38,450 bases of DNA from a virus (taxonomy: Duplodnaviria; Heunggongvirae; Uroviricota; Caudoviricetes). Position numbers and translations under genes: made by a program. The notes beneath the pieces are model-generated. The model did not search any database, was not told where the DNA came from, and saw nothing but the letters and a program-made list of their open reading frames with translations. The stretch lies in IMG/VR virus record IMGVR_UViG_2778261515_000019, positions 1-38,450 of that record; one strand, 5' to 3'. This document shows positions 1-38,450 of the stretch, piece after piece; position 1 is the first letter of the stretch; every line of letters starts with the position of its first letter.

Positions 1-351
1 ATGCGAGAGACAGTCGAAATTATGCGTTATCCCGTCACTCTTACACCCGCGCCGGAAGGCGGTTATATGGTTTCTTTTGTGGATATCCCTGAAGCGTTGA
101 CGCAGGGCGAAACTGTCGCTGAAGCGATGGAAGCGGCAAAAGATGCTTTACTGACCGCATTTGATTTTTATTTTGAAGATAACGAGCTTATCCCTTTACC
201 TTCGCCATTAAATAGTCACGATCACTTTATTGAAGTACCTTTGAGCGTCGCCTCTAAGGTATTGCTGTTAAATGCTTTTTTACAGTCAGAAATCACTCAG
301 CAAGAGTTAGCCAGGCGAATTGGCAAACCTAAATGTTGTAAACCCCAATAA
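1..351 (+). CDS. hicB: HicB-family antitoxin, C-terminally truncated (ORF ends inside predicted HTH, ...ITQQELARRIGKPK then 5 unrelated codons)
   Basis: N-terminal HicB/UPF0150-type sequence MRYPVTLTPAPEGGYMVSFVDIPEALTQGETVAEAMEAAKDAL; HTH-like ITQQELARRIG begins but the ORF stops 8 codons later; sequence character changes after ~337. Confidence 0.6.
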   Translation: MRETVEIMRYPVTLTPAPEGGYMVSFVDIPEALTQGETVAEAMEAAKDALLTAFDFYFEDNELIPLPSPLNSHDHFIEVPLSVASKVLLLNAFLQSEITQQELARRIGKPKCCKPQ

Positions 352-370
352 CTAAAATTTTTCCAATAAA

Positions 371-395
371 AAAGCCCCATCACAAGGACAGGGCT
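371..395 (-). terminator. Weak stem-loop plus T-tract (minus-strand sense) downstream of the 402..740 reading frame
   Basis: AGCCC...GGGCT stem with A-run on plus strand (T-run on minus strand). Confidence 0.3.
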
Positions 396-401
396 TAGAA
401 A

Positions 402-740
402 TCAATTACTTACGATGATACTTTCGCTTATCATTTTGTTGGTGATGATCTCCGGCAATGCTTCAAATGGTAGTGTTTCAGTGTAACCGTCTCGCATATC
501 ATCCCGACTAACAACACCACATTCATACTTAGTCTTTATGAGCTTCTCTAGCTTAGATGCATATTCCCCTTTACTGAATCGGAAAGACTTGACAAATGAT
601 TTAGGTTCTGGATCGGGGTCAGATAAAGCGAGTTTTCGGCACCCCGGTATTTGATACGCGTGTGAGATTTTAAAACGTGATCAGTGCAGTCCTAGCGCGG
701 TCGCTACGCGACTATTAACCCACTTCCCAGCCCTTACCAT
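402..740 (-). pseudogene. 112-codon reading frame interrupted by one in-frame TGA (codon 20); possible gene remnant or readthrough ORF
   Basis: ATG at 740..738, in-frame TGA at 683..681, frame stays open to TGA at 404..402; purine-rich stretch upstream of ATG; no similarity recognised. Confidence 0.25.
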
Positions 741-836
741 TACTGGATCTTTCCCTTCGTTAAAACGCGTTTTAGGCGCTTAGATTTTGCGTAAAACCAA
801 TAAATAAAATTACGCAAATTTAATGGAGGATAACCA

Positions 837-4202: not shown

Positions 4203-4385
4203 TCACCAAACGGTAGCTTCAATCTTCACCTTGATTTCATATTTCTTTAAGAGTTTGTGGAAGGTTGATTTATCGATGCCTTCATTTTTAAACCACTCTT
4301 CAATCCTCACTCCCGGCGTTAGTTCAAAGTAGCGTTTTGCTTTTTCCAACATAATCTCGCGAGTAAATTTAACAGTTCTAGCCAT
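4203..4385 (-). CDS. Small HTH DNA-binding protein (60 aa from ATG at 4385; ORF track extends to 4421)
   Basis: RBS GAGGA 8 nt before ATG at 4385; HTH-like GIDKSTFHKLLKKYEI; first gene of minus-strand operon. Confidence 0.5.
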   Translation of the reverse strand: MARTVKFTREIMLEKAKRYFELTPGVRIEEWFKNEGIDKSTFHKLLKKYEIKVKIEATVW

Positions 4386-4484
4386 GTTACATCCTCTACA
4401 TTGTGGATTATTTTTTCTCATAAAAAGAGCTTTTCGCCCTTGATACTTCTATTTATAAAATGATTTTCAGAAAACCCTGTAAAA

Positions 4485-7602: not shown

Positions 7603-7833
7603 TCAAATTCCGGTAGCTTCTACCATTTCACCGTCAACCTGAACAAAGAATTTCAAATCAACTTTATGGAGTGATTTGTAGAATTGAGCAATTGAAATAC
7701 CGTGTTCACTCAATACTTGCTCTTTTTCAGCTTTACCTTTCGGTGCTTGATAGTACGCTTTTACAATCGCTGCCAGTTGTTCACGATCAAAACGGCAAGG
7801 ACGTCCGCGAGTAGCTTTAGTAGTCATAGTCAT
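7603..7833 (-). CDS. Small DNA-binding protein (AT-hook-like RGRP plus HTH)
   Basis: TRGRPCRF motif and HTH-like GISIAQFYKSLHK; RBS GGAGAAATGA context. Confidence 0.5.
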   Translation of the reverse strand: MTMTTKATRGRPCRFDREQLAAIVKAYYQAPKGKAEKEQVLSEHGISIAQFYKSLHKVDLKFFVQVDGEMVEATGI

Positions 7834-7861: not shown

Positions 7862-8464
7862 TTATTTAGAGGATTTACATTTTATCGGAAAAAGTTCTCC
7901 ATCGTCAACGGTCATAAAGAACTCTGCCTTAATCCCGTACTTCTTCAACCGTGAATAGTATGTACCCCGACTTATATCAACCTTGCGAAGCACTTCAAAG
8001 AACCCTTTAGGATCGTTGTAATAGTGGCTATAACGCACGTTAGCGAGTTCAACGAATAGTTCCCTTGTATCACCATAGCCTTTCTTGAAAGCCTCGTTAC
8101 GATAGCGTGTAATTGCGTGATTCAATCTCTTCTGTTTCAACACTTCTCGGATCGGCTTCCACTGCAACCGATAGATAGGACCGTCATCCACTCGATAATA
8201 ACGCTTGATATCAAAATCAAACCAATCTCGGACTCTCTGGAACTCTGTATGTGATGTTCTATGCTTCTTAAAGAAGTTGTGAACGTCTGTATAACCATTA
8301 TCGCGGTAAAATTCTATTAAAATCTCTTTCGCTTCCTCACGACTAAATCCAGATGTTGTGTAGTCGGTTTTTAAATGCTTATGCTTAACTGGTAAACGAT
8401 ATTCATGATCGGTACAAGACAAGGCTAATTCTAATTCATCTCTTTGTTGCTGATTAATTAGCAT
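7862..8464 (-). CDS. DNA-binding protein with C-terminal resolvase/IS-type HTH
   Basis: 200 aa; C-terminal DISRGTYYSRLKKYGI HTH; divergent from terL. Confidence 0.5.
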   Translation of the reverse strand: MLINQQQRDELELALSCTDHEYRLPVKHKHLKTDYTTSGFSREEAKEILIEFYRDNGYTDVHNFFKKHRTSHTEFQRVRDWFDFDIKRYYRVDDGPIYRLQWKPIREVLKQKRLNHAITRYRNEAFKKGYGDTRELFVELANVRYSHYYNDPKGFFEVLRKVDISRGTYYSRLKKYGIKAEFFMTVDDGELFPIKCKSSK

Positions 8465-8549: not shown

Positions 8550-10454
8550 ATGAAACTGATTTCAAATAAGGCAAAATTAAAAAAGATTCTCAGAAATATC
8601 TCTGCTGCAATTCGCCCACCTAAAGCCATGAAACCTAGCGAATGGGTAGAGGCTAATGTAGTTGCAACCGATGGTGTTAAAGCCGGATCGCTAATTAAAT
8701 TGCATCCCTTCCAACGTGGAATGATGGACGCGATCACCGAAGACCGTAGAAAAATTGTGTTTAAATGTTCGGCGCAGTTGGGTAAGACCATGATTCTTAA
8801 CGGAATTATCTTCCATCGGATCGCGAGTAACCCTACGAATATTGGGGTGTTGCAAAGTAACGTTAGGGAACTAAATTCTTGGATCGCTGGTAAGGTGAAG
8901 CCAGTATTAGAGGCAACCCCAGAATTAAAGGCGATGATCACCGACAAATCAGATCGCAATGCCGTTAACAACTCATCGATTATTCAGCTTCGTAACGGAT
9001 CATTCATGTATTTCATGTCGTTGAATAGTCCGTCACATCTTCGCGGTAAAACACTCCCTTTGATTATTCTTGATGAAGTTGATGCGGCTGATGAGTCAGA
9101 CGAAGGGAACCCGATCCAGCTAGCGGAACAACGCGCAACCACTTTCGGGGAAGATGCAAGGATCGTAATTGCTTCCACTCCAACCGCTCGTGATGGGGCG
9201 ATTAACCAACAATGGGAACTCTCGGATAAGAGAAAATATCATGTCGTTTGTCAGCATTGCGGACACCGACACGTAATGGAATGGAGTAACGTTTATTTCG
9301 ATTGGCATACGATTAACGGTAAGTCATTACCTAACCCAGATACAGCCGTTTACCGCTGTCCTGCATGTGAAACCGACTGGACCGAAGGGGATCGCCTACG
9401 TGCTGTTGCTAAGGGAGAATGGGTCGCCACCGAACCAAATGCGGAAGTAATCGGTTTTCATGCTAACCGCCTTATGTCTCCGTTTAGTTCTATCCGTGCG
9501 TGTGTGGTGGACTTTGCTGATAGCTACGCGAATATGTCCCTGGCAACGTTCTACAATACAGTCCTCGGTGAAACCTTCGATGATCTTAACGAAGACCGCA
9601 CAGCCGACGAATTAGAAACGCTGAAAACTGATATTAGACTAGACAATATTCCTGATGATGTACTGGCTCTGGTTGGTGGAGTTGACCAGCAAAAAGACCG
9701 TCTGGAATCTACCTTGCTGGGTATTTCTCGTAAAGGGCTATGCGTAGTTGATCACCGATCATTCTATGATGTGAACTGCGAACGCCACGAATCGCCAGCA
9801 TATGACCAGCTTTACAACTTCCTGAAAGCTAAATTCTATACCCGATCCGGTGAACGAATCCCGATGTTATCTGCTTTCGTGGACTCATCGAACGGACGAG
9901 CTACAAACGTGATCTATCGATTCTGTAGTCGGTGGCAAAATCTAACCGCCATTAAAGGCGCAAGCAATGTTGATGCACCAATCCTTCCGGTAAAAGACAC
10001 AAGAACGGGTGGTTTTACCCTTAAAATTCTGGGCGTAAACAACCTTAAAACGATGATCCGTGAAATGATTAACCGGAATTTGAGAGATGGCGATCCTCAC
10101 ACTGTCTTCCAGATTGGTGACGTTCCTGATGACTATTGCGAGCAATTGCTTTCTGAACAGTTGAAACGGCAGGGTAATACCACACGTTGGGTAAAAGTTG
10201 GTCAGCAACGAAACGAGGCTCTCGACTGCCTGGCTTATTCCTATGCTGCTTCTCGCCATGTACTCAATAAAATGTCATGGGAAAAACTCGAAGCCATCAA
10301 AGATAGTTTGAACCGTGAACCAGAAGAATCCGTAGAAGCTCCTAAATCGCAATCTGACGAGAAAATAGAAGAAACTAAGCCAATCACACGACCACAACGT
10401 CAAAACATCGCCAGACGCCCAAATAGAGGCCGTGGCTGGGTAACATCGTTCTAA
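8550..10454 (+). CDS. terL: Terminase large subunit, GpA (lambda A) family
   Basis: 634 aa; motifs LHPFQRGMMDAI, ILDEVD, NTVLGETF, IKGAS, RNEALDC align with lambda gpA as recalled; start of long plus-strand morphogenesis operon. Confidence 0.85.
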   Translation: MKLISNKAKLKKILRNISAAIRPPKAMKPSEWVEANVVATDGVKAGSLIKLHPFQRGMMDAITEDRRKIVFKCSAQLGKTMILNGIIFHRIASNPTNIGVLQSNVRELNSWIAGKVKPVLEATPELKAMITDKSDRNAVNNSSIIQLRNGSFMYFMSLNSPSHLRGKTLPLIILDEVDAADESDEGNPIQLAEQRATTFGEDARIVIASTPTARDGAINQQWELSDKRKYHVVCQHCGHRHVMEWSNVYFDWHTINGKSLPNPDTAVYRCPACETDWTEGDRLRAVAKGEWVATEPNAEVIGFHANRLMSPFSSIRACVVDFADSYANMSLATFYNTVLGETFDDLNEDRTADELETLKTDIRLDNIPDDVLALVGGVDQQKDRLESTLLGISRKGLCVVDHRSFYDVNCERHESPAYDQLYNFLKAKFYTRSGERIPMLSAFVDSSNGRATNVIYRFCSRWQNLTAIKGASNVDAPILPVKDTRTGGFTLKILGVNNLKTMIREMINRNLRDGDPHTVFQIGDVPDDYCEQLLSEQLKRQGNTTRWVKVGQQRNEALDCLAYSYAASRHVLNKMSWEKLEAIKDSLNREPEESVEAPKSQSDEKIEETKPITRPQRQNIARRPNRGRGWVTSF

Positions 10455-12588: not shown

Positions 12589-14598
12589 ATGCTTAAATTT
12601 CGCCGCGATCTTAACGGTTACGGTGGAGTTATTAATGAAGGGCATAACGATCAATACGAATTTGAAATTGCTTTCTCAAGTACACAGCCTTATCAGCGCC
12701 AATTTTGGGATGAGCAAAATCAAGAAATGGTGGTATTAGATGAAATTCTGGTACATACACCGGAAGCGGTTGATCTGTCTCGTCTGAATAATAACGCTCC
12801 GTTGCTGTTCAATCATAATTTCGATAATCACATTGGTGTAGTCTGCGACGCTCGAATCGATGCGGATAACGTAGGCCGTGCTCTGGTTAAATTCTCTAAG
12901 CATGGCACTTTGGCTAATGATATTCGCAATAAAGTCATTGAAGGTACGATGGAAAAAATTTCTGTCGGTTATGACATTAAAGAATATCACATCGACTACA
13001 CCAAAGGGCAATTGATTGTTACTAAGTGGGCGCCTTTTGAAATTTCATTTGTGACGGTTCCCGCAGACGATTCGGTCGGTTTAAATCGCTCTCTAAATAC
13101 TATCACAGTTAATTTGGGGGCTAAACGAGATATGACTAAAGAACAAATCGAAGAAATCAAAGAAGAACAAGAATCAGCTCAGGTTGAAGAAACTCCGGTA
13201 GAAGAAAATAAAGAATCGGAAGTTGAAGAAACTCAAGAGCGCCAAGTTGAAGAGAATAAAGAAGATGAAAATCTCGAAGACGGAAAAGACGCTAAACATC
13301 CTGAAAGTGTTGATGATGATAGTTCAACTGTTCGGGAAACAGAAGAAGTAAAAGAAGAACGTGAAGCCGCTCCGGTTGAAGAAGAAAAAACCGAAGAAGT
13401 GGCTGAACGTTCCGAAGAAGACGAAGAAGAAATCCGAGCAATTGCGCGGGAACTAAATATTGATGACTCTGAATTAGCACGCGCATTGGCAATTAAAGAC
13501 ATGACGCCGGAAGCATTCCGCACTAAGGCACTAAATAATCTCGTCAATGCTCAACGTAATAACGAACAAATTAAGGACTCTAAAATGGAAAAAACTTTTG
13601 ACCTGAACAACGTAATTCGCTCTCTGGTAGATGGTGCTGCTCTGGGTGCTAACGAAGCTGAATATTCCGCTATGGCTGCTGGTGCTGCAATGCAGCGTGG
13701 TCGTGCTGCTCGCGGTGGCTCTGTATTCGTTCCGGCTGCTGCTCTGCGTGCTGCTTCCGAAGGTAACACCAAAGCTACTCTGACCGCTGTAACCGACGAA
13801 AAACTGCTGACTGAATCCTACATCGAAATGCTGCTTCCTGCTTCGTGTCTGGGTCGTCTGGGCGTGACCGTCCTGTCTGGTCTGAATGCTCCGATTGCTG
13901 TACCGAAAATGACTGCTTCCAGCGTTGATGCTTTCGGTTTCGTTGATGAAAACGGTGCTGCACCGGAAAGCAAAGCTGAATTTACAAACGTGAAAATGGC
14001 TCCGAAAACTTTTGCTGGTGGCAACCCGATCAGCCGTCAGTCTCTGAAAACTGTTCCGAATATTGCTACCCTGATCACTGATCACATTAACAAAGCTGTT
14101 CGTATCAAACTGGAACAACTGATTCTGTCTGACAAAGCTAACGAACGTGGTCCGAAAGGTCTGGTTAAGCAACTGGTAGACGCTAACCGCGTTACTAAGA
14201 AAACTGCTTTCTCTTACAAAGACTTCCTGAAAGAAATTGCAGCACTGACCGACGCTGGCGTTCCTGCTCAGGCGATCAAGTTCGCTATGAGTGGTGCAAC
14301 TGCTGCTGAACTGGAATCTACCCCGAAATCCGATCGTGGTGACGCTCAAGGCTTCATTATGGAAAACGGCAAACTGGCTGGTTACGATGTAGTTACTTCT
14401 GGCGTTATTCCGGCAGACCACATCGTTCTGGGTGACTTCTCCGGTATCATGATCGGTGAATGGGGTGGTCTGGAACTGGATATGGACGACACCACTTACC
14501 GCGCACAGTCTGCTATCGTTCCGCGTATCTGGGTAGACCTGGACTTCACCGTAGTTCAGCCGGAAGCTCTGAAAGTTCTGAAAATGGGCGAAGAGTGA
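12589..14598 (+). CDS. Prohead protease - acidic linker - scaffold-like coiled coil - HK97-fold major capsid protein, fused in one 669-aa ORF
   Basis: N-terminus has U35-type prohead protease motifs PLLFNHNFDNHIGVV and ISVGY; residues about 180-300 Glu-rich; C-terminal about 300 aa Ala/Gly-rich with capsid-like LSDKANERGPKGLV; optimal codons. Confidence 0.7.
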   Translation: MLKFRRDLNGYGGVINEGHNDQYEFEIAFSSTQPYQRQFWDEQNQEMVVLDEILVHTPEAVDLSRLNNNAPLLFNHNFDNHIGVVCDARIDADNVGRALVKFSKHGTLANDIRNKVIEGTMEKISVGYDIKEYHIDYTKGQLIVTKWAPFEISFVTVPADDSVGLNRSLNTITVNLGAKRDMTKEQIEEIKEEQESAQVEETPVEENKESEVEETQERQVEENKEDENLEDGKDAKHPESVDDDSSTVRETEEVKEEREAAPVEEEKTEEVAERSEEDEEEIRAIARELNIDDSELARALAIKDMTPEAFRTKALNNLVNAQRNNEQIKDSKMEKTFDLNNVIRSLVDGAALGANEAEYSAMAAGAAMQRGRAARGGSVFVPAAALRAASEGNTKATLTAVTDEKLLTESYIEMLLPASCLGRLGVTVLSGLNAPIAVPKMTASSVDAFGFVDENGAAPESKAEFTNVKMAPKTFAGGNPISRQSLKTVPNIATLITDHINKAVRIKLEQLILSDKANERGPKGLVKQLVDANRVTKKTAFSYKDFLKEIAALTDAGVPAQAIKFAMSGATAAELESTPKSDRGDAQGFIMENGKLAGYDVVTSGVIPADHIVLGDFSGIMIGEWGGLELDMDDTTYRAQSAIVPRIWVDLDFTVVQPEALKVLKMGEE

Positions 14599-16364: not shown

Positions 16365-19300
16365 ATGCAGTCGATCCAATTTAAACGCACACAAACGGCT
16401 GGTAAAAAACCAACGCCGGAACAATTATCACAGGGTGAAATCGCCTTACAGTTGGCGGATCATGTGATTTACACCAAAGACAAAAATAATAACGTAGTCC
16501 AAATTAGTGTTTCTCCAGAAAAACACGCTGAACTGAATACGAAAGTAGACAATAACAAAACTAGCACTGACCGTGTTATTGCTTCCAACAAACAAGAAGC
16601 CGCTAATAATCTGGCTAGTGCTAAAGCTGAACTGAATCAGACTATTACCACGAAAGATACAGCGACCAATAAGCGCATTGATGCTACTAACACCACGGTT
16701 AGTAACTTAACCCAGACAGTCACGGCAAATAAAACCGATGCTGATACTAAGATCAATAACCTTACGGGGACAGTTGCATCTAACAAATCAGCTATAGAAA
16801 CTACTGTAGCAAATAATAAACGAGATGCGGACAATAAAATCGCAGCTTTAACCACGACGGTTAATGACAATAACACCGCGATTAACAACAAAGTTAATAC
16901 CACTAACACCAACGTTAGCAACTTAACTAAAACTGTTACTGCAAATAAAACCGATGCAGATAACAAAATTTCTAGCTTAACTAGCACGGTTGCAGCTAAC
17001 AAAACAGCGATTGAAAAGGTCGTTTCCGACAACAAGAAAGATGCTGATACGAAGATCACCAACTTAACCAACACTGTTAATAGCAACCACACCGCCATTA
17101 ACAACAAGGTTGACCAGAATAAATCAGCTACTGATTCAGCGATTGCAGCCGCTAACCGTCGAATTGATGGTATTGAAGGTAGCAACGATGCTCTTTACAT
17201 CAAGAAGAATACCAACACTAAGCACGGCGGGTATCTGTTAAGCAAGACAGCTAACTATCTGGAAGACCAGACATCACGAGATCTTAACTACTTTGGTGCT
17301 TTCCGTACCAATGGTCTTGATGGACTCATGGATCTAACTCTTAACGTTCCTCACTCTGCCGGTAAAGCTCACGGTCGCGGATTTACTTTCCGTTATGCGT
17401 CTGGTGGATCTCGTGTTGAAACCTATGGTTTTGATAGAGATGGACAGAAGAACTTTAGCTATAAGATGTATCACGAAGGTGATAAGCCGACTCCTGGCGA
17501 GATTGGTGCATACACCAAAGCCGAAGTTGATAAGATGTTTGTTAAAAACGTCGCTATGTCTGTTCCCAATTCTAGCGAAAACGTATCTGCATATTTCAAA
17601 TTGGCAACCGCAACAATTCCACAAAACGGGCGTAGTGTGTTTTTCCGTATTCATGGTGGTGATGGTTACAACGTTGCGGCATATGACCAAGTTGATGTAG
17701 TAGAAATTCTTCTCCGTAGTGGTAACGATAGACCTAAAGGACTTAACGTAGTTGCATATCGTCGAAATACCGTCAAAGATTTTGATGTATTTGCCGTCAA
17801 TACATCCGGTGATAACTATGACATTTATGTGAAATATCAGCGTTACACTGATAACGTTATTGTAGAATATGGGAAATCTGTTAATGTAAGTCTGACGGTT
17901 TATGATACGCCGGAAGCCACGTTAATTAAACCTTCTGTTGGTGTTATTGGCGGTCGCGCGGTAACTCTATTCAATACAGAAAACAAACGAGGTGTGTTGA
18001 GTTTTGACGATAACACACAAAATAGTTATGATATTGTTCACTTGAGTAATGATAGGGGTACTGGACGAAAATATATTCGTAAATTCCGTAGTAACTATAA
18101 TGAAATGATCTGGCACGAGACGGTTCAAGGCGCCAGCTATCGTCTGGCTACTGGTGCAACTGATGCTCAGGAGATTCTAACCGTTGAATCTGTTAGCTCA
18201 ATTGCTGGAACTCATAAAGGTAATATTACTTCTGGCCGTATGCTGTTAAATGGCGGTAGTAATGTTATTACCTTGCGGCGTCCTGCTGGTCAATCCAACC
18301 ATATTGCGTTTCAAGATAATCGGACTGGAGATATTACCCGTCAAGGGTGGATCGGTTATGCCAATGCTGATACTAACGTTTTTGAATGGTATAGTGATGT
18401 AGGTGGCAGTTCTATTCGTCAACATATCGACGGACAGATCGAACTTGCAACCGGTAACACAAAACGCGTTTATACTAACGCTCAATTCATCTCAATGAAT
18501 AGCGACGCCTACCGTATGCTCTATGGTAATTATGGTGCATTCTGGCGTAATGACGGCGTTAAAGTTTATCTTCTTTCTACTGCCGAAAATGATAAATTGG
18601 GCGGATGGAATACTTATCGTCCATTCATTTATGATTTAACTTCCGGTAACGTTCAATTAGGCGGTGATGGTAACGAAGATGCATTAACGTTAGAACGTGC
18701 TTCTCGTGCCGCTCGCTTTAGTAATGACGTTTACATTAAGAAAGGGCATTTGACTTTCGACGCTGGGCGATTAAATTCCCGCGATTACTTCCGGTTTAAC
18801 CATTGGGGTGATAGCAATAACGGTCGCGATAACATCCTACAGATTGAAGACAGTAAGGGCGCACATTTTACCACTGAACGTACTTTATCAACTGGTGCGA
18901 TTAAAACTAAATTCTTCGGTGATTTGGAATCTGCTGGTCAAATTAAATGGGGTAAAGGGACCGCCGCATCTACGTTTACTCTACGTGTATGGGGTAACGA
19001 TAGTCGTAAACAAATATTTGAATGTGGCGATGAAAGTGGGTGGCATTGGTATACCCAACGACCTGGCGGTCCAGGTACTACAGCAATAGAATTTGCTATC
19101 AACGGTACTGTTAAGCCTCAAGCAATTCACAGTGGCGGTAATATCACTATCAACGGTGCTGATATTGAGTTTCGTCGCAGTGGCAATAAGCATTTGTGGT
19201 TTAGAGATCCGAACGGTTTAGAGTTAGGCTTGATGTACTGCGATGATGCTGGTGCTATTCGCTTCCGTGGTCAGAAACAAGCCCAGGCGTGGAAATTTGC

Positions 19301-19979
19301 AGATAAAATGATCCAGTTGGAATCTGGCACTGTATCCGGTGGCGGTAATGGCCTGATTCGTGGTGAAGTTGCTGGCGGTAGTTGGGCTAGCTGGCGTGAC
19401 CGTGCTGCTGGCCTTATGGTTGGGTGTCCTCAATCCACCAACTCGGCACATAACGTATGGAAAGCGACGCATTGGGGTAAATATCACATTGCAGCAATGG
19501 CTGTACATGTTCCTGATGGTACTATTACCAATGCTTTAGCTCGCCTAAACGTTCATGACGCCAACTTTGACTTTAACGCTGCGGGTGATTTTAGCGCAAG
19601 TCGTAATGGTAGCTTTAACGATGTTTACATTCGTTCGGACCGTCGTCTGAAAGTTAATCTGGAAGAATTAAAAGATGATGCTTTAGAGAAAGTAAACTCC
19701 CTGAAAGTCTACTCATACGATAAAGTTAAGTCTCTTAAAGATCGTAGTGTGATTAAACGCGAAGTCGGTATTATTGCTCAGGATCTGGAAGAAGTATTGC
19801 CGGAAGCAGTAGGTATTCAATCCACCGAAGATCCAGAAAATCCAGAAGCAATTAAGACTATTTCTAACTCTGCTGTTAATGCCTTGATTATTAAAGCTAT
19901 TCAGGAAATGGACGCCAAATATCAAGCTAAGATTGAAGCATTGACTAAAGAGATTGCCGAACTCAAAGCAACTAAATAA
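16365..19979 (+). CDS. Long tail fiber with N-terminal Thr/Asn-rich tandem repeats and C-terminal intramolecular-chaperone-like domain
   Basis: 1204 aa; two ~72-aa repeats NxSNLTxTVTANKTDADxKI...; C-terminal SDRRLKVNLEEL...VYSYD...GIIAQDLEEVLPEAV resembles autoproteolytic chaperone domains of fiber/endosialidase proteins. Confidence 0.8.
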   Translation: MQSIQFKRTQTAGKKPTPEQLSQGEIALQLADHVIYTKDKNNNVVQISVSPEKHAELNTKVDNNKTSTDRVIASNKQEAANNLASAKAELNQTITTKDTATNKRIDATNTTVSNLTQTVTANKTDADTKINNLTGTVASNKSAIETTVANNKRDADNKIAALTTTVNDNNTAINNKVNTTNTNVSNLTKTVTANKTDADNKISSLTSTVAANKTAIEKVVSDNKKDADTKITNLTNTVNSNHTAINNKVDQNKSATDSAIAAANRRIDGIEGSNDALYIKKNTNTKHGGYLLSKTANYLEDQTSRDLNYFGAFRTNGLDGLMDLTLNVPHSAGKAHGRGFTFRYASGGSRVETYGFDRDGQKNFSYKMYHEGDKPTPGEIGAYTKAEVDKMFVKNVAMSVPNSSENVSAYFKLATATIPQNGRSVFFRIHGGDGYNVAAYDQVDVVEILLRSGNDRPKGLNVVAYRRNTVKDFDVFAVNTSGDNYDIYVKYQRYTDNVIVEYGKSVNVSLTVYDTPEATLIKPSVGVIGGRAVTLFNTENKRGVLSFDDNTQNSYDIVHLSNDRGTGRKYIRKFRSNYNEMIWHETVQGASYRLATGATDAQEILTVESVSSIAGTHKGNITSGRMLLNGGSNVITLRRPAGQSNHIAFQDNRTGDITRQGWIGYANADTNVFEWYSDVGGSSIRQHIDGQIELATGNTKRVYTNAQFISMNSDAYRMLYGNYGAFWRNDGVKVYLLSTAENDKLGGWNTYRPFIYDLTSGNVQLGGDGNEDALTLERASRAARFSNDVYIKKGHLTFDAGRLNSRDYFRFNHWGDSNNGRDNILQIEDSKGAHFTTERTLSTGAIKTKFFGDLESAGQIKWGKGTAASTFTLRVWGNDSRKQIFECGDESGWHWYTQRPGGPGTTAIEFAINGTVKPQAIHSGGNITINGADIEFRRSGNKHLWFRDPNGLELGLMYCDDAGAIRFRGQKQAQAWKFADKMIQLESGTVSGGGNGLIRGEVAGGSWASWRDRAAGLMVGCPQSTNSAHNVWKATHWGKYHIAAMAVHVPDGTITNALARLNVHDANFDFNAAGDFSASRNGSFNDVYIRSDRRLKVNLEELKDDALEKVNSLKVYSYDKVKSLKDRSVIKREVGIIAQDLEEVLPEAVGIQSTEDPENPEAIKTISNSAVNALIIKAIQEMDAKYQAKIEALTKEIAELKATK

Positions 19980-20678: not shown

Positions 20679-21185
20679 ATGGCGAATGTCGTTAATAAGC
20701 CCGGCTGGGTCGGGTCATCTGCTGTTTCTGTAACTAGTCAACGATGGATGACCGCAGCAATGAACGCATTAAAGGTTAGTCGCCCAGCTAACATGAGTGC
20801 GATGTGTGGTCGTGGTATGGATACGGTTGTAGCTACTGCTGCGTGGTCTACTTCATTGGGTAATAACTGGGGTGTAACTGCTTCAAACTATCCAGTAACT
20901 GACATGCGCGGTAAAGGATCTATGGAGAACCCCGAAAACGTTGGCGTAGGGCGTCTGATTGGCGTTATCGTTGGTCAATTCAATGGTGGTACTCCTACTA
21001 TGGCTGTATATCTCCAGAACGGTAGAGCGGGGAATATAACCGTTAATTTGGGTGGTGCTGCTGTCACTGTTCCTTATAACAGTATGCAAAGTGGTTTTCA
21101 TTACTACTGGTTAAGCAATCCTCCGGCTGCTTTCCTTACCAACATTAAGAAGACTGGCACTAAGCAGACTTTGAAAATCTCTTAA
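20679..21185 (+). CDS. Tail-associated protein of unknown role
   Basis: 168 aa; between tail tube and chaperone genes. Confidence 0.45.
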   Translation: MANVVNKPGWVGSSAVSVTSQRWMTAAMNALKVSRPANMSAMCGRGMDTVVATAAWSTSLGNNWGVTASNYPVTDMRGKGSMENPENVGVGRLIGVIVGQFNGGTPTMAVYLQNGRAGNITVNLGGAAVTVPYNSMQSGFHYYWLSNPPAAFLTNIKKTGTKQTLKIS

Positions 21186-31863: not shown

Positions 31864-31896
31864 AACAAAAGCGCCTCTAGTGGGCGCTTTTTTGTT
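31864..31896. terminator. Bidirectional terminator between convergent plus operon and helicase gene
   Basis: AAGCGCC-TCTAGTG-GGCGCTT flanked by A-run and T-run. Confidence 0.65.
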
Positions 31897-33394
31897 ATAT
31901 AGCAATTGTTTTAGTTGCATAGCTGAACTTGTCGGTTAGATAATAGCGGATTCTCTCAAGTGCATGTTTTACCGCATAATTTTTATGCTTGACTTTTCCG
32001 TTACGACCGAATATACACAGATGATCTATAAGATCCCAGACCGTTGCAATATCCTTAGAACCATGTTTACGCAATGCACGACCGATACTCTGACGAACGA
32101 TAGTTGATTCCTTCACGGGATGACCGAAAATAACATGGTGCAAGTTCTTAATTGAAACACCAGTAGAGAACACACCATAGGATGCAACGCAAATGATCCC
32201 GGTTTCCCCTTCCGCTAATTTCTTAAATTCATCACGTTCTTCTGTCTTAACTCCACCGTCAATATAATAAACCTTGTTGTGTACCTTCTGTAACGCATCA
32301 TACATAAGTTTTCCGTGCTTAGTATTGCGGAACATCAGGAATACGTTTTCGCCCTTCTTAGCGAGTTTTAGCGCCAAATTACAAGCAAACTTATTTCGTC
32401 GTGGGTTAGACGTAATATACTTGATCTCTTCCGCATATTCTCTCCCCTTAACCGCGCTACATTCCTCATCGGTATAACGAAGGAAAAGACAGTTAATTTT
32501 CAGTTTTGTCACCTGCCCTTCTTCCATCAGGCGGTCAATACTCACGATCTTAGAAATATCACCGAAAAGCCCGACATACTGCATTAAATGGCACTTTGAT
32601 TCTTTCGGGGAACCAGTCATGCCGATCTTAAATTGGCAATGATTCATTCCGTTAATGATATTGGTAATATTTTTGGCACTAGCCTTATGCGATTCATCAA
32701 CTATCAACATTCCATATTGTCGGAACCATTCAGGAGGCATCTTGCAAGCTGATTGCCAGGTACTAACCGTGATTAACCTGTCTCCCGGATGTTTCCCGCT
32801 ACCACTCATCATTGTATGAATTGCTTCATAAGGGAATAACCGATAATCGATGAAATCATCCCTCATTTGAACCACTAGCGATGTAGTAGGGACAATGATT
32901 AACACTTTTCCGGTGTAATGCTCTAAGTACCAGCGAGACAGCATACAAGCAATCAATGACTTTCCGGCACTGGTAGGAAGAACCAGCATTCTACGGCGAT
33001 TATGAATACCCTGAAAGACTGCCTCCCTTTGATACCAGTAAGGATTGATTTTATTGGAACCGGAATACACTTCTAGGGAATCAATCCATTCATTAATCGC
33101 GTCTTTGGTTACATCTTCCTTCTCAAGTAATCTGGGGTCAATCCAGACTGAATACCCCATATTTTTAACGAAGACACCCAACGTTTTTAATAGTCCAATT
33201 GGTAGGGTGTTTTCATGCGTAAACAGTCTTATTCGTCCATCCCAGCCAGAATACTTGTAACGGGGGCTAAACCTAGCCCCTTCAACCTCAAACGAGAAAT
33301 AATCTCTTAATTCCATTCCGATAGAAGGAGAGCAATCAACCTTAACGAAACTGTAATCTTGAAAATGAATTTTAATATCTTGCATTAGTTCCAC
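31895..33394 (-). CDS. SF2 DNA helicase, UvsW-like
   Basis: Motif I LPTSAGKS, motif II LIVDESH; N-terminal IKIHFQDYSFVKVDCSP...LRDYFSFEVEGARF...WDGRIRLF strongly resembles T4 UvsW as recalled. Confidence 0.8.
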   Translation of the reverse strand: MELMQDIKIHFQDYSFVKVDCSPSIGMELRDYFSFEVEGARFSPRYKYSGWDGRIRLFTHENTLPIGLLKTLGVFVKNMGYSVWIDPRLLEKEDVTKDAINEWIDSLEVYSGSNKINPYWYQREAVFQGIHNRRRMLVLPTSAGKSLIACMLSRWYLEHYTGKVLIIVPTTSLVVQMRDDFIDYRLFPYEAIHTMMSGSGKHPGDRLITVSTWQSACKMPPEWFRQYGMLIVDESHKASAKNITNIINGMNHCQFKIGMTGSPKESKCHLMQYVGLFGDISKIVSIDRLMEEGQVTKLKINCLFLRYTDEECSAVKGREYAEEIKYITSNPRRNKFACNLALKLAKKGENVFLMFRNTKHGKLMYDALQKVHNKVYYIDGGVKTEERDEFKKLAEGETGIICVASYGVFSTGVSIKNLHHVIFGHPVKESTIVRQSIGRALRKHGSKDIATVWDLIDHLCIFGRNGKVKHKNYAVKHALERIRYYLTDKFSYATKTIAI

Positions 33395-33682
33395 TCCACA
33401 CTTGCAATATTCTTTATATTGTTTAGTGATTTATTGCAGTAGTGGAATGTTTCAGTTTTGCCGTATTCAATCCCGCCTATACCCACATCCAGATAGAGAA
33501 TGCAATAGTAAGACAATTTTCTCTGATAAATAGTAGTGAACTTATTATTTTAGAGGAAACTACTATGAAACTTGCTTACGCTGCCTAATGCAATTAAATT
33601 AGGCTATGTCACAACAAACAGTTGATAAATAGCCATTTTTATAGGGGAGTATCAGAACTCCCCTACAAACTGTTATTTGCAG

Positions 33683-34177
33683 TTATCTATACTCATTTGG
33701 AATTTCGATATGAAGTGTCTCACACAATAACTTCACATCATGTGCATCATTTTCATCAAACTCGTATCCCAGATGGAACATTACTTGACTATATGGTTCA
33801 ATACAGGAAACCTCTATTTCCTCAATTCTTCCTTTACCCGAAAAAGTTTCTACCGGAAAACAATCCCCATCATAAAGAATTTCACCTTCGTCCGTATATT
33901 CAAAACAATGCAAATCAATAATTCTGTTTTTCAAATCTTCCCATACAGTATGGTTCAATGTTGTATATTCCATCTTAATCTCATAAAAGCCATTAGCTTT
34001 CATTATTTCTATAAAGTTCTGATAATCGTTCTTTTCTACAAAAATGTCAATATCATTATGGGCTCTTGACTGATATCCAAGAAGAGCATCTACACCCCAT
34101 CCACCATCAAGAAAGACTTTAATCTCCGCATCTATTGCAAATTGAAGAATCTGTTTTACATCTGTTATATTGACCAT
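33683..34177 (-). CDS. lnuC: Lincosamide nucleotidyltransferase, Lnu family (lnu(C)-like), 164 aa
   Basis: Motifs FLDGGWGVDALLG, HNDIDIFV, FHLGYEFDENDAHD typical of Lin/Lnu nucleotidyltransferases; 495-bp ORF from ATG at 34177 (track ORF extends to 34246). Confidence 0.7.
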   Translation of the reverse strand: MVNITDVKQILQFAIDAEIKVFLDGGWGVDALLGYQSRAHNDIDIFVEKNDYQNFIEIMKANGFYEIKMEYTTLNHTVWEDLKNRIIDLHCFEYTDEGEILYDGDCFPVETFSGKGRIEEIEVSCIEPYSQVMFHLGYEFDENDAHDVKLLCETLHIEIPNEYR

Positions 34178-34200
34178 CTTATCATCTCCACAAATTCTAA

Positions 34201-35244
34201 TTAGGCGACCAGAGGAACTGCTGGTCTGTTTGATAAATCTCTGCATTTAGCAGTTTTCAATGTTGCCAAAACAAAAGTTAAGAAGATGTTCCTTTTCTCC
34301 ATGTCGCTTTCTTTGGCGTAATTTACAAGGTTATTCCACACAAGATAGTTGTTCAGATACTTGGTAGAAACACCGTTAAAGCCACGCATAAACCTCTTTA
34401 GCTGGCTATGGTAGCTATTGATATGTTGGATATTATAAATGCCTTTCTTGGCTTTGCCAGTCTTTAACTGCACAAGGTCAATGCCATTGGCATTTGTAAA
34501 TCTCACATAGGAGTTCATCTTGTCCGTAACAAGAGTGGAATTGGTCTTAATCCTACCATCATAAATATGATGTAAATCTCTTGTAGAAACTCTACCAGTA
34601 TTCGTAATCTTGGAGATAGACAAGCCATTCCTATTAACCGCACAAGGAACACATACCTTTTCTTGGGACAAGCCTCTGATATGTGTAGAATGACCACGCT
34701 TATGAGCCTTGCGTGGCATAGCAAATGTCTTACTCTTGCTATGATTGCCCTTGTACGAGATGGCGAAAAAAGTTTCGTCAGCCTCAATAATGCCGTCAAG
34801 GGTAACATCGTCTGCCATATTCTGAAGTGCATCCAAAATCTTGTGTCTCCAAAGGAATGCGGTGTTTCTGTGAATCCCACAAGCAACAGCAGTCTTACGA
34901 ATGGATAAGCCATTCATCATACAATCAATGTACTGCTCCCACACGGACAAGTCTTTTCTTGTACCAGACACAATGGAGTTCGTAGCAATCACGAAGGACT
35001 TGCCACAATCCTTACATACATATCGCTGTGTGCCATCTTTACGATGACCATTGCGAACCACATGGATACAGCCACAAAGAGGGCATACACGACCATTTGC
35101 AAAGCGTTCCTTTGCTACGAAATCTTCAATATTCAAAGACTTTACAAAGGCAGGACTTAAAAGCATTGTTTTAAGGCTTTCCTGCTCTGCGACAGTCAAC
35201 TTACCGATAATATCTAATGCGTCTTTGATAGTAGGCATATCCAA
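34201..35244 (-). CDS. IS1595-family (ISXO2-like) DDE transposase
   Basis: 347 aa; N-terminal zinc-ribbon CPLCGC...CKDCGK; DDE core; directly upstream of lnu gene inside the IR-bounded element. Confidence 0.75.
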   Translation of the reverse strand: MDMPTIKDALDIIGKLTVAEQESLKTMLLSPAFVKSLNIEDFVAKERFANGRVCPLCGCIHVVRNGHRKDGTQRYVCKDCGKSFVIATNSIVSGTRKDLSVWEQYIDCMMNGLSIRKTAVACGIHRNTAFLWRHKILDALQNMADDVTLDGIIEADETFFAISYKGNHSKSKTFAMPRKAHKRGHSTHIRGLSQEKVCVPCAVNRNGLSISKITNTGRVSTRDLHHIYDGRIKTNSTLVTDKMNSYVRFTNANGIDLVQLKTGKAKKGIYNIQHINSYHSQLKRFMRGFNGVSTKYLNNYLVWNNLVNYAKESDMEKRNIFLTFVLATLKTAKCRDLSNRPAVPLVA

Positions 35245-35338
35245 TTACCTCCTTCGGTGGTACTGTTTCTTACTATTATTATACGCTATTTCTCGTCAAA
35301 AATCAACCATTTGTTGTGACAGAGCCTTAAATTAAAAA

Positions 35339-35356
35339 AGGGGTACGAATGTACCC
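35339..35356 (-). terminator. Terminator of the recombinase gene (the IS element sits in its A/T tract)
   Basis: GGGGTAC-GAAT-GTACCCC with A-run on plus side. Confidence 0.55.
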
Positions 35357-35395
35357 CTTAACTGTTTTAGCTCGTTATACGTCGATTTAGGCCGC

Positions 35396-37075
35396 TTAAA
35401 TTCCAAATTCCTGTAATGGACCTGGTATTTCCTCTTCTGGTTTCCAGTTCTTATCTGTCAGCATGTCTAAACATGGATGCAGAACAAGCCCGTTACTCTC
35501 CAGAATCTGCCTATCATTGATAGTCTTCAAATCAACGAAGATCCGGCCTTTCCTCGGTCCTCTTGAATTTTCTATTACAACTCTCTGGGTCTTGCCATCG
35601 ATGTATTCCAGTACAAACAAGTTTTTGTACTTGTCAATCCTGCTACACCCGATCCGTTTTAGAGCTTGCTTAATCTTAAACCGGACCTTAATGCGATCCT
35701 CATTATAAACATCTTCTAAATCAAATTCTGCGAGCTTCTCCCAGCCTTGAGAGTCCACAGAATACATTTCCTCTTCTGCCATCTTAATCTGATTGTAGAG
35801 TGTTTCACGCTCGCTATTGAGGGTAGTAATCTGGTCGGCTAACTCCTTCGTTGCTCCTGTCATAGCAGAAAGGGTAATCAGGTTATCAATCTTGCGTGAT
35901 ATTTCATCAATCTGTACTTTCAAAGCCGGAACCGGATTAGCCTTATCCTCAGCAATCCAGATTTTATCAGCCAGCAATTGCAATACAGCTTTCTCTAATT
36001 GATCACCTCGAAAACTCCAGTTTGTATGCACACATGCAATACGACTAGAGCGCATTGCATCGCATGAATAACGATATTGGTTAGGACGTTTGTTAGTTCC
36101 TTTCACCTTAACCATAGCGGAACCGCAATGTTCACATTTCAATAGACCAACACCACTAAGCAAGGGAATAGGTTTAACTTCTTCCTTGTCTCCATAGTTA
36201 CATGCTCTAACACCAATGCTTTTCTTAAGGTGATAAAACTCAGCGTCATCTAGCACACGAGGATAATAATCCTTTAACTCATACTTAACGCCATCTACAG
36301 AGATTTCCTTGATACCAATCAAAGCGCGGGTATGGAACAACCTTTCAATCATTGCCCGTGACCAGTTTGAATGCCTCTTGTGACTTGCGGCTGGTGGTGG
36401 TGTATATGTCGCGTTAAGGTGATCCAGTATTTCGGCGGTAGACCGTCCATTCCTGCGTAATTCCACAACCTCCTGAACAATAGGGAAGAAGACCGGATCG
36501 GGACACACATAACCGGAAGTGGTATCAGTCCACCACATATTCTTTCCAATTTCCTCGATTGCAACAGCCGGATTTTGTGGATTTTCTTGATGAGCTTTAA
36601 TCTTAATCAATGCGCTTGAGTTAGTACGATTGCGCTTAGTCTGACTTTCCTCGTTAGCTCTCGCAAACAACATGACACTCAACAGCAAATCAATAGGATT
36701 GGCATTAACCGATTCCTTGCTATAGACCTTACCATCCATGCCAGTTACGATAGTTATTCCCCTACGGATAATCGAGAGAAATAGCTCTTGTGCTTCAATG
36801 ATGGATTGGCGAGAGATACGGTCCAAGTTTTCCACAACCAGCCAGCTACCAACCGGAACAGATCGACCAATCTCATCCAGAAAGCGAGATAGTGCACCTG
36901 TTCTACTGTTAGCCCCTTTGAATGCAGATACACCAAAATCCTGATAGCTTGTAACTAGCTCAAGATCATATTTTGCGGCTATCTCTGCGGCTGTTCTCTT
37001 CTGGCGTTCATAAGAACTACCATCCGCTTGCTTCATAGACGAGAAGCGAATATACGAATACAGTTTAGTTTTCAT
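35396..37075 (-). CDS. Large serine recombinase (resolvase/integrase family)
   Basis: N-terminal catalytic motif YSYIRFSSMKQ...ERQ; central recombinase domain; zinc-ribbon Cys cluster CEHCGS...SCD...CVH; C-terminal coiled coil; ATG at 37075 (track ORF starts at TTG 37090). Confidence 0.8.
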   Translation of the reverse strand: MKTKLYSYIRFSSMKQADGSSYERQKRTAAEIAAKYDLELVTSYQDFGVSAFKGANSRTGALSRFLDEIGRSVPVGSWLVVENLDRISRQSIIEAQELFLSIIRRGITIVTGMDGKVYSKESVNANPIDLLLSVMLFARANEESQTKRNRTNSSALIKIKAHQENPQNPAVAIEEIGKNMWWTDTTSGYVCPDPVFFPIVQEVVELRRNGRSTAEILDHLNATYTPPPAASHKRHSNWSRAMIERLFHTRALIGIKEISVDGVKYELKDYYPRVLDDAEFYHLKKSIGVRACNYGDKEEVKPIPLLSGVGLLKCEHCGSAMVKVKGTNKRPNQYRYSCDAMRSSRIACVHTNWSFRGDQLEKAVLQLLADKIWIAEDKANPVPALKVQIDEISRKIDNLITLSAMTGATKELADQITTLNSERETLYNQIKMAEEEMYSVDSQGWEKLAEFDLEDVYNEDRIKVRFKIKQALKRIGCSRIDKYKNLFVLEYIDGKTQRVVIENSRGPRKGRIFVDLKTINDRQILESNGLVLHPCLDMLTDKNWKPEEEIPGPLQEFGI

Positions 37076-37086
37076 ACCATTTCCAA

Positions 37087-37124
37087 ACAAAAACGCCCCT
37101 ACCGCGTATTATAACGATAGGGGC
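37087..37124 (-). terminator. Terminator between gene 37141..37386 and recombinase gene
   Basis: 10-bp stem GCCCCTACCG/CGATAGGGGC (one wobble in RNA sense) then U-run in minus sense. Confidence 0.5.
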
Positions 37125-37140
37125 ATTGGTTAGTAAGTCA

Positions 37141-37386
37141 TTAATATTTCTTTCCAGTTAGTTTTGCATCACGTTTATTAATATCCTCGATATGACTCCA
37201 TACACACGCAGTAATAAAGTCGTCATCGTCACCAACTCCGGCAACCTGTGCTAATTCAGTACACAGTTGATTTAAAGAAGGTGCAACGGCAGCACGCTTG
37301 ACACTATCACCCTGTACATATTGATCCGCATTAGCAGCACCAACCAAACCCAGAGCAAGAACGATACCAGCGATAATCTTTTTCAT
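37141..37386 (-). CDS. Small secreted protein (signal peptide, 81 aa)
   Basis: MKKIIAGIVLALGLVGAANA signal peptide with AxA cleavage motif; RBS GAGGA. Confidence 0.5.
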   Translation of the reverse strand: MKKIIAGIVLALGLVGAANADQYVQGDSVKRAAVAPSLNQLCTELAQVAGVGDDDDFITACVWSHIEDINKRDAKLTGKKY

Positions 37387-37415
37387 AATAGAATCCTCTT
37401 TGTTATTTGAATTAA

Positions 37416-37730
37416 TTAGTCTTTGAAGTCGATGGTCACGTTACCTTTAAGGGCAAGTTCCATTAAACAACTGCGCTCATCCTTCATGCTCTTACACAAT
37501 TTCATCCCGTAAACAACGAGATTATCTTTCTCTTTCCAATATTTTTGTTTATCTGCATAAACCTCGCTATATTCACTGTCTTTGAGTGAGAGAGCATTTT
37601 CTAACTGGCTAATCTCCTGATTCAGATCCTTAATCTCGGCCTTATTTGACCGGATAGTCTCTTGATGTTGAGTATCGGAATAGTCATACCCACAAACAAA
37701 TCCACCGATGCCACCAACACACAGAAACAA
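37416..37730 (-). CDS. Coiled-coil protein; a signal-peptide/TM-like N-terminus (MKKTIYAIIVSVC) lies 1 nt out of frame upstream (ATG at 37755)
   Basis: Track ORF starts at TTG; upstream ATG with RBS GAGGATTCAATTATG encodes 13 signal-like residues then shifts frame inside a GTGTGT tract. Confidence 0.4.
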   Translation of the reverse strand: MFLCVGGIGGFVCGYDYSDTQHQETIRSNKAEIKDLNQEISQLENALSLKDSEYSEVYADKQKYWKEKDNLVVYGMKLCKSMKDERSCLMELALKGNVTIDFKD

Positions 37731-37777
37731 TAATTGCGTAGATAGTCTTTTTCATAATTGAATCCTCTTTGAATGAA

Positions 37778-37921
37778 TTACGATATATTTATATCATTAA
37801 AAATTGATGCTAATTACCAGACCAAACACAACCGCACCAATCAAATCAATCCAGTTAATACACAATCCGCTATATTCTTTCTTGAATGTCTTAGATGAAA
37901 TGCCATCATGAAATTGTTTCA
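37778..37921 (-). CDS. Candidate small membrane peptide (47 aa)
   Basis: Hand-translated MKQFHDGISSKTFKKEYSGLCINWIDLIGAVVFGLVISINFNDINIS; purine-rich stretch before ATG; below ORF-track length cutoff. Confidence 0.25.
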
Positions 37922-38022
37922 TTGCTCACCCCATACTAACGACAATATAAGAAAGGCTGATCATAGTTGTGAGACTACCTCCCACGAATGAGATAAAAGC
38001 TAACATGTTTGATTCTCCAGTT

Positions 38023-38048
38023 TAAAAAGCGGTGGGAATTGCACCCAC
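38023..38048 (-). terminator. Terminator for gene 38064..38450
   Basis: GGTGGG-AATTGCA-CCCACC with A-run on plus side. Confidence 0.5.
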
Positions 38049-38063
38049 CAAATTAGAAATTAA

Positions 38064-38450
38064 TTAAGCGCGAACGATGGTCAGAGTATCCAGCAAACCT
38101 TTTTCGTATAATTCGAAACACGTTTTATATTGCTCAATCTGGAAACCATAGCGGGTGATCTTATTCAGTAGAATAATCGCGCTATTCTCATCTAGGTATT
38201 GTCCTTGCTGTCCAATGACATAAGTCTCGCGGGATAGTCTCAGCTTACGGAAACCTTTAACACCTAATTCCTTAGCCACCGCTTTAATCTCTTTAATCTC
38301 ACCCTCAGCAGCTACATATTCAGCGTCGATAATCTCAGGTGATGATCTCAGTGCTACCAGAACTAAGGCCATTGCTTCTTCTTCGGTACGAGCAACACCA
38401 GCTTTCTCGAAAGTCATCTCGCCAAATTTACGAATCATGATATTGAACAT
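38064..38450 (-). CDS. Hypothetical protein, 3' portion (gene start lies beyond the window edge)
   Basis: ORF open to the window boundary; no family recognised. Confidence 0.5.
   Translation of the reverse strand: MFNIMIRKFGEMTFEKAGVARTEEEAMALVLVALRSSPEIIDAEYVAAEGEIKEIKAVAKELGVKGFRKLRLSRETYVIGQQGQYLDENSAIILLNKITRYGFQIEQYKTCFELYEKGLLDTLTIVRA

Follow-up and report, generated by a model that had tools for sequence, protein, structure and literature searches.

The virus record IMGVR_UViG_2778261515_000019 of IMG/VR, a stretch of 38,450 nucleotides that was analyzed as a whole (hereafter the window), carries near its right end a gene for a large serine recombinase (LSR) next to a resistance element. 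What does this recombinase do? A preliminary description made from the letters alone offered two answers, namely that the protein is the integrase of the surrounding element, related to a junction in the host gene hicB at the other end of the window, or that it is part of a mobile cassette of its own; as the refuting case it named an invertase or resolvase with a local target. We examined the junctions of the element, the protein, and the distribution of its alleles among genomes. The gene very probably encodes the serine integrase that inserted a prophage into hicB. It is an integrase of the ordinary phage kind, from an uncharacterised Escherichia coli prophage lineage.

The prophage and its attachment sites

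The window is an E. coli prophage of ~38.2 kb, trimmed at gene boundaries and located inside hicB, with ydcR just past the right edge. Its first letters are an ATG 21 bp 5' of position 22, where hicB is annotated to start, and it stops at the start codon of the final prophage gene; cut-outs from this prophage family in IMG/VR likewise end at gene boundaries. Comparison with an uninterrupted hicB, which the preliminary description had proposed as a check, places the prophage inside the gene: identity ends at position 333 and is followed by five phage-encoded codons (CCKPQ) and a stop. On contigs with the identical recombinase the remainder of hicB, and then ydcR, lies past the right edge, and in the complete genome BS74R-D a prophage of ~37 kb lies between the two hicB halves. 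At least 67 blocks of the assembly collection include contigs that encode the identical protein, and the matches listed are from E. coli and Shigella. Among the contigs listed, its gene lies ~1.5 kb from the chromosomal genes ydcR-ydcSTUV-patD.

The second proposed check, a search beyond the right edge, recovered the element boundary. In a contig that encodes the identical protein, the edge is followed by 42 bp of phage sequence, after which hicB resumes at AAACCTAAACAGG; the attR core lies 43-51 bp beyond the edge (it would be 38493-38501), and the attR P arm starts directly beyond the last prophage open reading frame (ORF). The earlier statement that no attachment site is evident does not hold for the window, given that attL is present near its left end (Table 1), where it was defined by comparison with attR and with the empty hicB site of strain TG1. 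The sole sequence common to the junctions, and hence the attP/attB identity of the hicB lineage, is the 9-bp AAACCTAAA (window 325-333). The empty site in TG1 reads GCGAATTGGC-AAACCTAAA-CAGGAGATTAC, attL reads ...GGC-AAACCTAAA-TGTTGTAAACCCC and attR reads ...ATTAGGG-AAACCTAAA-CAGG.

From these junctions we reconstructed a hicB-type attP of ~54 bp, GTTATTGTGGGGGCATTATATTAGGG-AA-ACCTAAATGTTGTAAACCCCAATAAC; about the same AA, the hicB attB reads GCGAATTGGC-AA-ACCTAAACAGGAG. The position of the AA in the hicB attL was taken from a sister lineage in ycdX and from a junction in curA, both described below. The excised form is predicted to carry the attP sequence ATTAGGGAAACCTAAATGTTGTAAACCCC and to leave a restored attB, TTGGCAAACCTAAACAGGAG. 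Dyad symmetry of the hicB-type attP about the AA extends to 14 of 26 positions, the highest value for any centre in that sequence. In attP the symmetry resides in two elements, CCCTAA on the inside and CC.CAATAAC on the outside, which fits half-sites made of two parts.

Recombinases of a band of ~87% identity sit inside another gene, ycdX. In this lineage exactly 2 bp of the empty site, AA, are present in both attL and attR, with attB reading CATCCCGGA-AA-TCCCAAATATG and attP reading GATATTAGGG-AA-CCCTAACGTAG. The overlap was repeated in a second E. coli genome, and a Salmonella relative (73% identity) has an attR in its own ycdX that is consistent with it. Serine recombinases cut with a stagger that leaves a 2-bp overlap as its signature. 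Furthermore, the ycdX-type attP displays dyad symmetry at 18/26 positions about the AA, a value that 3 of 5,000 shuffles reached at any centre.

A third junction was observed on one contig with the identical recombinase. Here the phage arm is joined inside curA, between GCAAATCGGCAAAC and TTAAAGG (GCA_043715605.1; L006 ~8560-8700, compared with L020), and the junction sequence strongly resembles the hicB attB GCGAATTGGCAAACCTAAAC. This junction narrows the crossover to AAAC, which includes AA. Judged by its sequence, the curA site appears to behave as a secondary attB; the joint would represent either a secondary integration or a deletion of ~12 kb ending at a pseudo-site.

By analogy with known serine integrases, dimers of the enzyme would bind the ~54-bp attP and an attB in the part of hicB that encodes its helix-turn-helix (HTH). 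The two sites would then synapse, Ser12 would cut each of them at the central AA with a stagger of 2 nt, and subunit rotation and religation would yield the attL of the window and the attR past its right edge. Serine integrases recombine attP with attB unidirectionally, and excision needs a directionality factor. For the enzyme in hicB we infer catalysis, directionality, a need for an excision (directionality) factor and restoration of hicB on excision.

The recombinase protein and its relatives

The serine-recombinase catalytic motif, zinc ribbon and coiled coil that had been read from the sequence of the 559-residue protein were all recovered by Pfam, by invariant residues and in an AlphaFold model. 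A TTG-extended form of the protein would have 564 residues, its gene reaching position 37090. Three Pfam matches exceed their curated cut-offs: the Resolvase N-terminal domain PF00239 (residues 6-153, E 7e-15), Recombinase PF07508 (198-286) and Zn_ribbon_recom PF13408 (310-368). In an alignment of 26 homologues, down to 35% identity, R10, S12, Q16, D85, R86 and R89 are invariant, S12 being the putative nucleophile of the catalytic domain, and so are the zinc-binding cysteines C314, C317, C338 and C348. The ratio of nonsynonymous to synonymous substitution rates (dN/dS) between alleles is 0.05-0.2, and the gene is constrained by purifying selection.

The AlphaFold model, built from the same alignment (mean predicted local distance difference test score, pLDDT, 77.8), predicts a catalytic alpha/beta domain, a long helix (127-164), a helical domain, a small beta domain and a coiled coil of two helices (382-406 and 410-437). 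The best solved-structure matches of the model in Foldseek are phiC31 integrase and 9dxf, a serine integrase with a recombination directionality factor (RDF), at E ~4e-15; the Listeria integrase-DNA complex 4kis also matches (E ~5e-9), the three together spanning E 4e-15 to 1e-8. Sequence identity to these structurally matched integrases is only 12-16%. A PDB sequence search with the recombinase matched the catalytic domain only (3guv), indicating that kinship to the solved integrases is visible at the fold level only. In all sequence, fold and att-site features that could be examined, the recombinase agrees with the LSRs.

Domain order, including a zinc ribbon with an inserted coiled coil, is the same as in the integrases of phiC31, Bxb1, Listeria A118/LI and TP901-1 and in SPbeta SprA. 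Like the canonical serine integrases, the system has short att sites, with an attP that is symmetric over ~50 bp and a 2-bp crossover that is not a palindrome. Its insertion inside a protein-coding gene resembles SPbeta and A118, which both insert within such genes. In contrast to the canonical enzymes, to which its identity is ~12-16%, its host is E. coli, for which we know of no well-studied natural serine-integrase phage.

The closest matches among cultured phages are gp1 of Burkholderia phage JC1 and the serine recombinases of Bcep22/Bcep176, with 28-31% identity over 85% of the length. JC1 lysogenises by integrating in the 5' end of rimO, and its attP adjoins the recombinase gene (PMC9144972). 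The integrase role is supported by the closest characterised relative, JC1 gp1 (~30%), which comes from a phage shown to integrate into rimO (PMC9144972). Unlike the prophage studied here, JC1 is a podovirus with another host and another target, and its attP/attB overlap is 18 bp, compared with 9 or 2 bp here. The line of reasoning, from an LSR at the element edge with attB and attP rebuilt from empty sites, is like that behind the LSR-att pairs of Durrant et al. 2023 (PMC10083194). The N-terminal peptide of the recombinase and its att sequences are absent from the supplementary files of that study, a set of files that may be incomplete (PMC10083194). A search of the literature on a prophage or serine integrase at hicB or ycdX found nothing relevant.

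A relative with 38% identity (638 aa; L072 7001-8917 and 11284-14448) is widespread in Enterobacter, where it stands at the edge of an island and not in a prophage. The island carries a pair of AAA-ATPase and UvrD-helicase genes resembling Gabija defence, plus a small resolvase. As the Enterobacter relative lies beside Gabija-like genes, the wider recombinase family is not only phage-borne.

Insertion site, recombinase allele and rival explanations

We compared recombinase alleles with insertion sites in a census of 5,426 complete E. coli genomes. A related recombinase gene is carried by 57 of them, in identity bands of 97-99%, ~91% and ~87%, and a search specific for the junctions recovered the hicB attR joint in 35 complete genomes and the ycdX joint in 27. 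Where identity to the gene of the window is 90% or more, the recombinase gene lies in hicB 29 times and in ycdX once (strain FDAARGOS_1267). Those of the 86.7-88.2% band lie in ycdX in 24/24 genomes, to which second copies in BS74R-D and UTME-9 are added (26 in total). These two strains hold both prophages, one per site (hicB, ycdX), suggesting that the two integrases, and the immunity of the two prophages, are compatible in one genome. The complete genomes with both related prophages are NZ_CP063332.1 and NZ_CP157110.1.

The recombinase proteins are mosaic. Residues 1-160 occur as two deeply diverged alleles (synonymous divergence, dS, >1) that are uncoupled from the site, and when five alleles were compared, 24 of the 29 site-diagnostic residues mapped to the recombinase and zinc-ribbon domains (176-351), and the catalytic domain contained none. 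In solved integrase-DNA complexes (4kis family), reading of the att sites falls to the recombinase and zinc-ribbon domains. The link between allele and site is correlative and comes from natural mosaics; such a pattern in the sequences would be hard to explain unless the recombinase chooses the site. We tentatively raise the possibility that the hicB enzyme is a recent natural retargeting of a ycdX integrase widespread in E. coli, Shigella and Salmonella, achieved by about two dozen substitutions confined to these two DNA-binding domains, together with corresponding changes in the attP arms and with free recombination of the catalytic alleles between the two enzymes.

No second candidate for the integration was found. 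Among window ORFs of at least 100 aa, a domain search identified no other recombinase or integrase domain, in agreement with the earlier claim that this is the only recombinase in the window, and the DDE transposase of an insertion sequence (IS) is the one further enzyme that breaks DNA. Likewise, the NCBI (PGAP) annotation of two complete relatives lists no other recombinase or integrase. Together, the 2-bp crossover, the dyad attP, the co-variation of allele and site and the lack of another integrase argue strongly for the first answer of the preliminary description, an integrase of this element tied to the hicB junction.

Several points weigh on the other side. The architecture and fold, both junctions, the 2-bp crossover of the sister lineage, the attP symmetry and the link between allele and site are all in silico results, and the census counts are phylogenetically non-independent. 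The attB sites display no significant dyad symmetry, and the crossover of the hicB lineage is bounded to 9 bp, or to 4 bp using the curA junction. The integrase gene is ~1.4 kb from attP, not directly beside it. Searches with exact patterns of the attP (excised) form found it neither in IMG/VR (both lineages) nor in JGI metagenome contigs (hicB lineage); in IMG/VR these elements occur solely as prophage cut-outs that end at gene boundaries. Finally, no RDF, repressor or replication genes are recognisable in the prophage, which may for that reason be defective, and it could also be defective in view of a capsid that has no close cultured relative.

The alternative that survives best takes up some of these points. 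It holds that the protein is a former integrase and the prophage now a fixed defective remnant, whose gene no longer works in excision or integration. We regard this as unlikely. In the window copy the recombinase ORF and the genes for structure, lysis and packaging are all intact, the recombinase evolves under purifying selection, and the presence of the same protein at three different sites, together with two related prophages in one genome, indicates recent mobility. Set against this are the missing attP form, a capsid without a close cultured relative in a prophage of which no cultured relative is known, and the finding that several relatives are IS-disrupted or truncated (e.g. PigCaeca_2 and HCP5S3_I4).

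It is very unlikely that the protein is an accessory, non-integrative recombinase similar to YbcK, with the hicB insertion made by an integrase now lost or supplied in trans. The best phage-database matches do include lambdoid YbcK-like proteins, and YbcK-type LSRs (lambdoid coliphages, DLP12) share ~30% identity over ~80% of the length and the same Pfam domains. Lambdoid phages that carry YbcK have a separate integrase, whereas here the LSR is the sole recombinase and lies at the prophage end, and neither a tyrosine integrase nor a remnant of one is found in the window or in complete relatives. Moreover, the 2-bp junction overlap and an attP dyad centred on it are hallmarks of serine integrases, and the site co-varies with the DNA-binding domains of the recombinase across the 57 genomes.

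Harder still to credit is a local invertase or resolvase that would act in tail-fibre switching or dimer resolution while something else integrated the prophage. The catalytic domain is common to invertases such as Gin, a weak Foldseek match, and the prophage has large tail-fibre genes, but a repeat search found no inverted crossover sites flanking any segment near the gene. The flanking inverted crossover sites that the preliminary description had named for this case were not found near the gene, where the only strong inverted repeat is formed by the IS ends, and a motif search found the att core once in the window. Unlike Gin/Hin and Tn3/gamma-delta (about 180-200 aa, with a C-terminal HTH), which act on pairs of inverted or res sites in a single replicon, the protein has 559 aa, carries the large recombinase/zinc-ribbon/coiled-coil module in place of the small HTH, and has no paired sites near its gene. 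Furthermore, the allele of its DNA-binding domains follows the chromosomal insertion site.

Least credible of all is the cassette of the preliminary description, in which recombinase and lnu(C) would form a serine-recombinase transposon of the Tn4451/Tn5397 type and not the prophage integrator: only 69 bp separate the recombinase gene from the resistance element and the adjoining intergenic region holds different cargo in different relatives, but the IS has its own DDE transposase, 17-bp terminal inverted repeats, GGCT(A/C)TGTCACAACAAA, and a perfect 8-bp target duplication, TTAAATTA (33594-33601 and 35327-35334), every IS-free prophage examined (E. coli, Salmonella) has the recombinase at this same place, and the Streptococcus copies of the IS are without this recombinase. 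The empty IS target is present in relatives L002 and L006-L010. Given these inverted repeats, the duplication and the empty target, the IS is independent of the recombinase, and its sequence indicates that it arrived separately. In contrast to Tn4451 TnpX and Tn5397 TndX, where recombinase and resistance cargo travel together in an element with joints of its own, the lnu(C) unit is self-contained and the recombinase occurs without lnu(C) in most relatives.

Gene surroundings and the interrupted antitoxin

The integrase gene, its neighbours and the left junction are located as listed in Table 1.

Table 1. Positions of the integrase gene, its protein regions and the surrounding features (nucleotide positions refer to the window; protein regions are given in residues)
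Feature	Position	Strand	Remarks
Large serine recombinase (serine integrase)	35396..37075	minus	intact ORF, 559 aa from ATG
Recombinase protein layout	catalytic ~1-125; helix E 127-164; recombinase ~196-291; zinc ribbon ~310-373		
Recombinase protein layout, C-terminal part	coiled coil 382-437; beta-rich region 443-557		
Terminator-like hairpin upstream of recombinase	37127..37092	minus	between 81-aa ORF and recombinase start
Intrinsic-terminator-like hairpin downstream	35338..35359	minus	AAGGGGTAC-ATTC-GTACCCCTT then TTTTTA
Three small prophage ORFs (81, 104, 128 aa)	37141..38450	minus	between integrase and attR
ISSag10/MTnSag1-like IS1595-family element with lnu(C), 1,725 bp	33602..35326	minus	not part of the integrase system
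attL	299-352	.	B arm 299-324; putative crossover AA 325-326; P' arm 327-352 (ACCTAAATGTTGTAAACCCCAATAAC)
5' part of chromosomal antitoxin gene hicB	1..351	+	identity to intact hicB stops at 333

The resistance element that had been noticed beside the recombinase is the IS1595-family unit of Table 1, with 99% identity to copies carried by phages and satellites of Streptococcus. Its lnu(C) gene encodes a lincosamide nucleotidyltransferase; a resistance element of Gram-positive type is here aboard a coliphage and abuts the integrase terminator. The element is a passenger on a potentially mobile prophage and not a partner of the recombinase.

The recombinase is flanked by terminators as first described, with hairpins on the gene's own strand on both sides. 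The downstream hairpin lies 37 nt past the recombinase stop codon and is kept in the IS-free relative L002. The upstream hairpin, which holds a TATAAT hexamer within its loop, may separate integrase transcription from the neighbouring genes; a consensus scan called no sigma-70-like promoter for the integrase. Of the small ORFs between integrase and attR, the 81-aa ORF has a signal-peptide-like N-terminus, and gene content in this interval differs among relatives.

On the other side of the integrase, the interval up to uvsW is a cargo hot spot (window 33395-35395; L011 11755-13653; L012 2463-4427; L013 2529-4427). Depending on the relative, it is empty or holds the lnu(C) IS, genes for GIY-YIG nucleases, CapR-like genes or further hypothetical genes. 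The prophage gene nearest to attL is variable as well: BS74R-D has a 101-aa ORF (L016 4749-5054), compared with an unrelated sequence in the window (380-760) that has a short ORF only. A terminator-like hairpin at ~365-395 precedes this variable slot.

The genes of the window are lambda-like, with a lambda-type large terminase, a portal, tail genes, a J-like tail tip and an M15 peptidase. A first impression of a T4-like virulent phage, prompted by the RB49-like helicase and fibre genes described below, was rejected in view of the flanking chromosomal DNA and of head and tail genes that resemble those of lambda. The capsid is fused to a prohead serine protease (Peptidase_S78 + Phage_capsid, 669 aa; 12589-14598). 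The major capsid protein is only 45% identical to its closest cultured-phage relative, indicating that no representative of this prophage lineage has been isolated. A tail-fibre gene of 1,204 aa (16365-19979) reaches up to 86% DNA identity to gp37 of RB49-like (Krischvirus) T4-type phages and is followed by a gp38-adhesin-like gene (20679-21185), and a UvsW-type helicase (31895-33394) has 80% protein identity to RB49 UvsW. By the likeness of gp37 and UvsW, a temperate lambda-like prophage shares host-range and recombination genes with strictly virulent phages. Three minus-strand ORFs (4203-4421, 7603-7833 and 7862-8464) end in similar C-terminal motifs, ...F.KLLKKYEIKV, ...FYKSLHKVDLKF and ...YYSRLKKYGIKAEF, which suggests a small paralogous family of DNA-binding proteins; they could be regulators or candidates for the directionality factor.

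The insertion cuts HicB after residue 104, leaving a product of 104 native residues followed by the phage-encoded CCKPQ. In terms of Pfam domains, the toxin-binding HicB_lk_antitox domain (3-67) is kept and the HTH_3 domain (88-134 of intact HicB) is lost. In the relatives examined, hicA is intact upstream. Loss of the HTH could alter hicAB autoregulation, and excision would presumably restore hicB.

These results settle where the element ends, with attL inside the window and attR just outside, and make the gene's role as its integrase very probable. A HicB antitoxin without its DNA-binding domain may alter toxin-antitoxin regulation in lysogens, and a reversible insertion in the HTH-coding part of hicB could possibly serve as a switch on HicAB regulation. 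If the hicB and ycdX enzymes are orthogonal, as the double-carrier genomes suggest, they provide a compact natural data set for reprogramming serine integrases native to E. coli. As an uncharacterised pair with different targets, whose specificity differences lie at few residues, they could aid integrase engineering.

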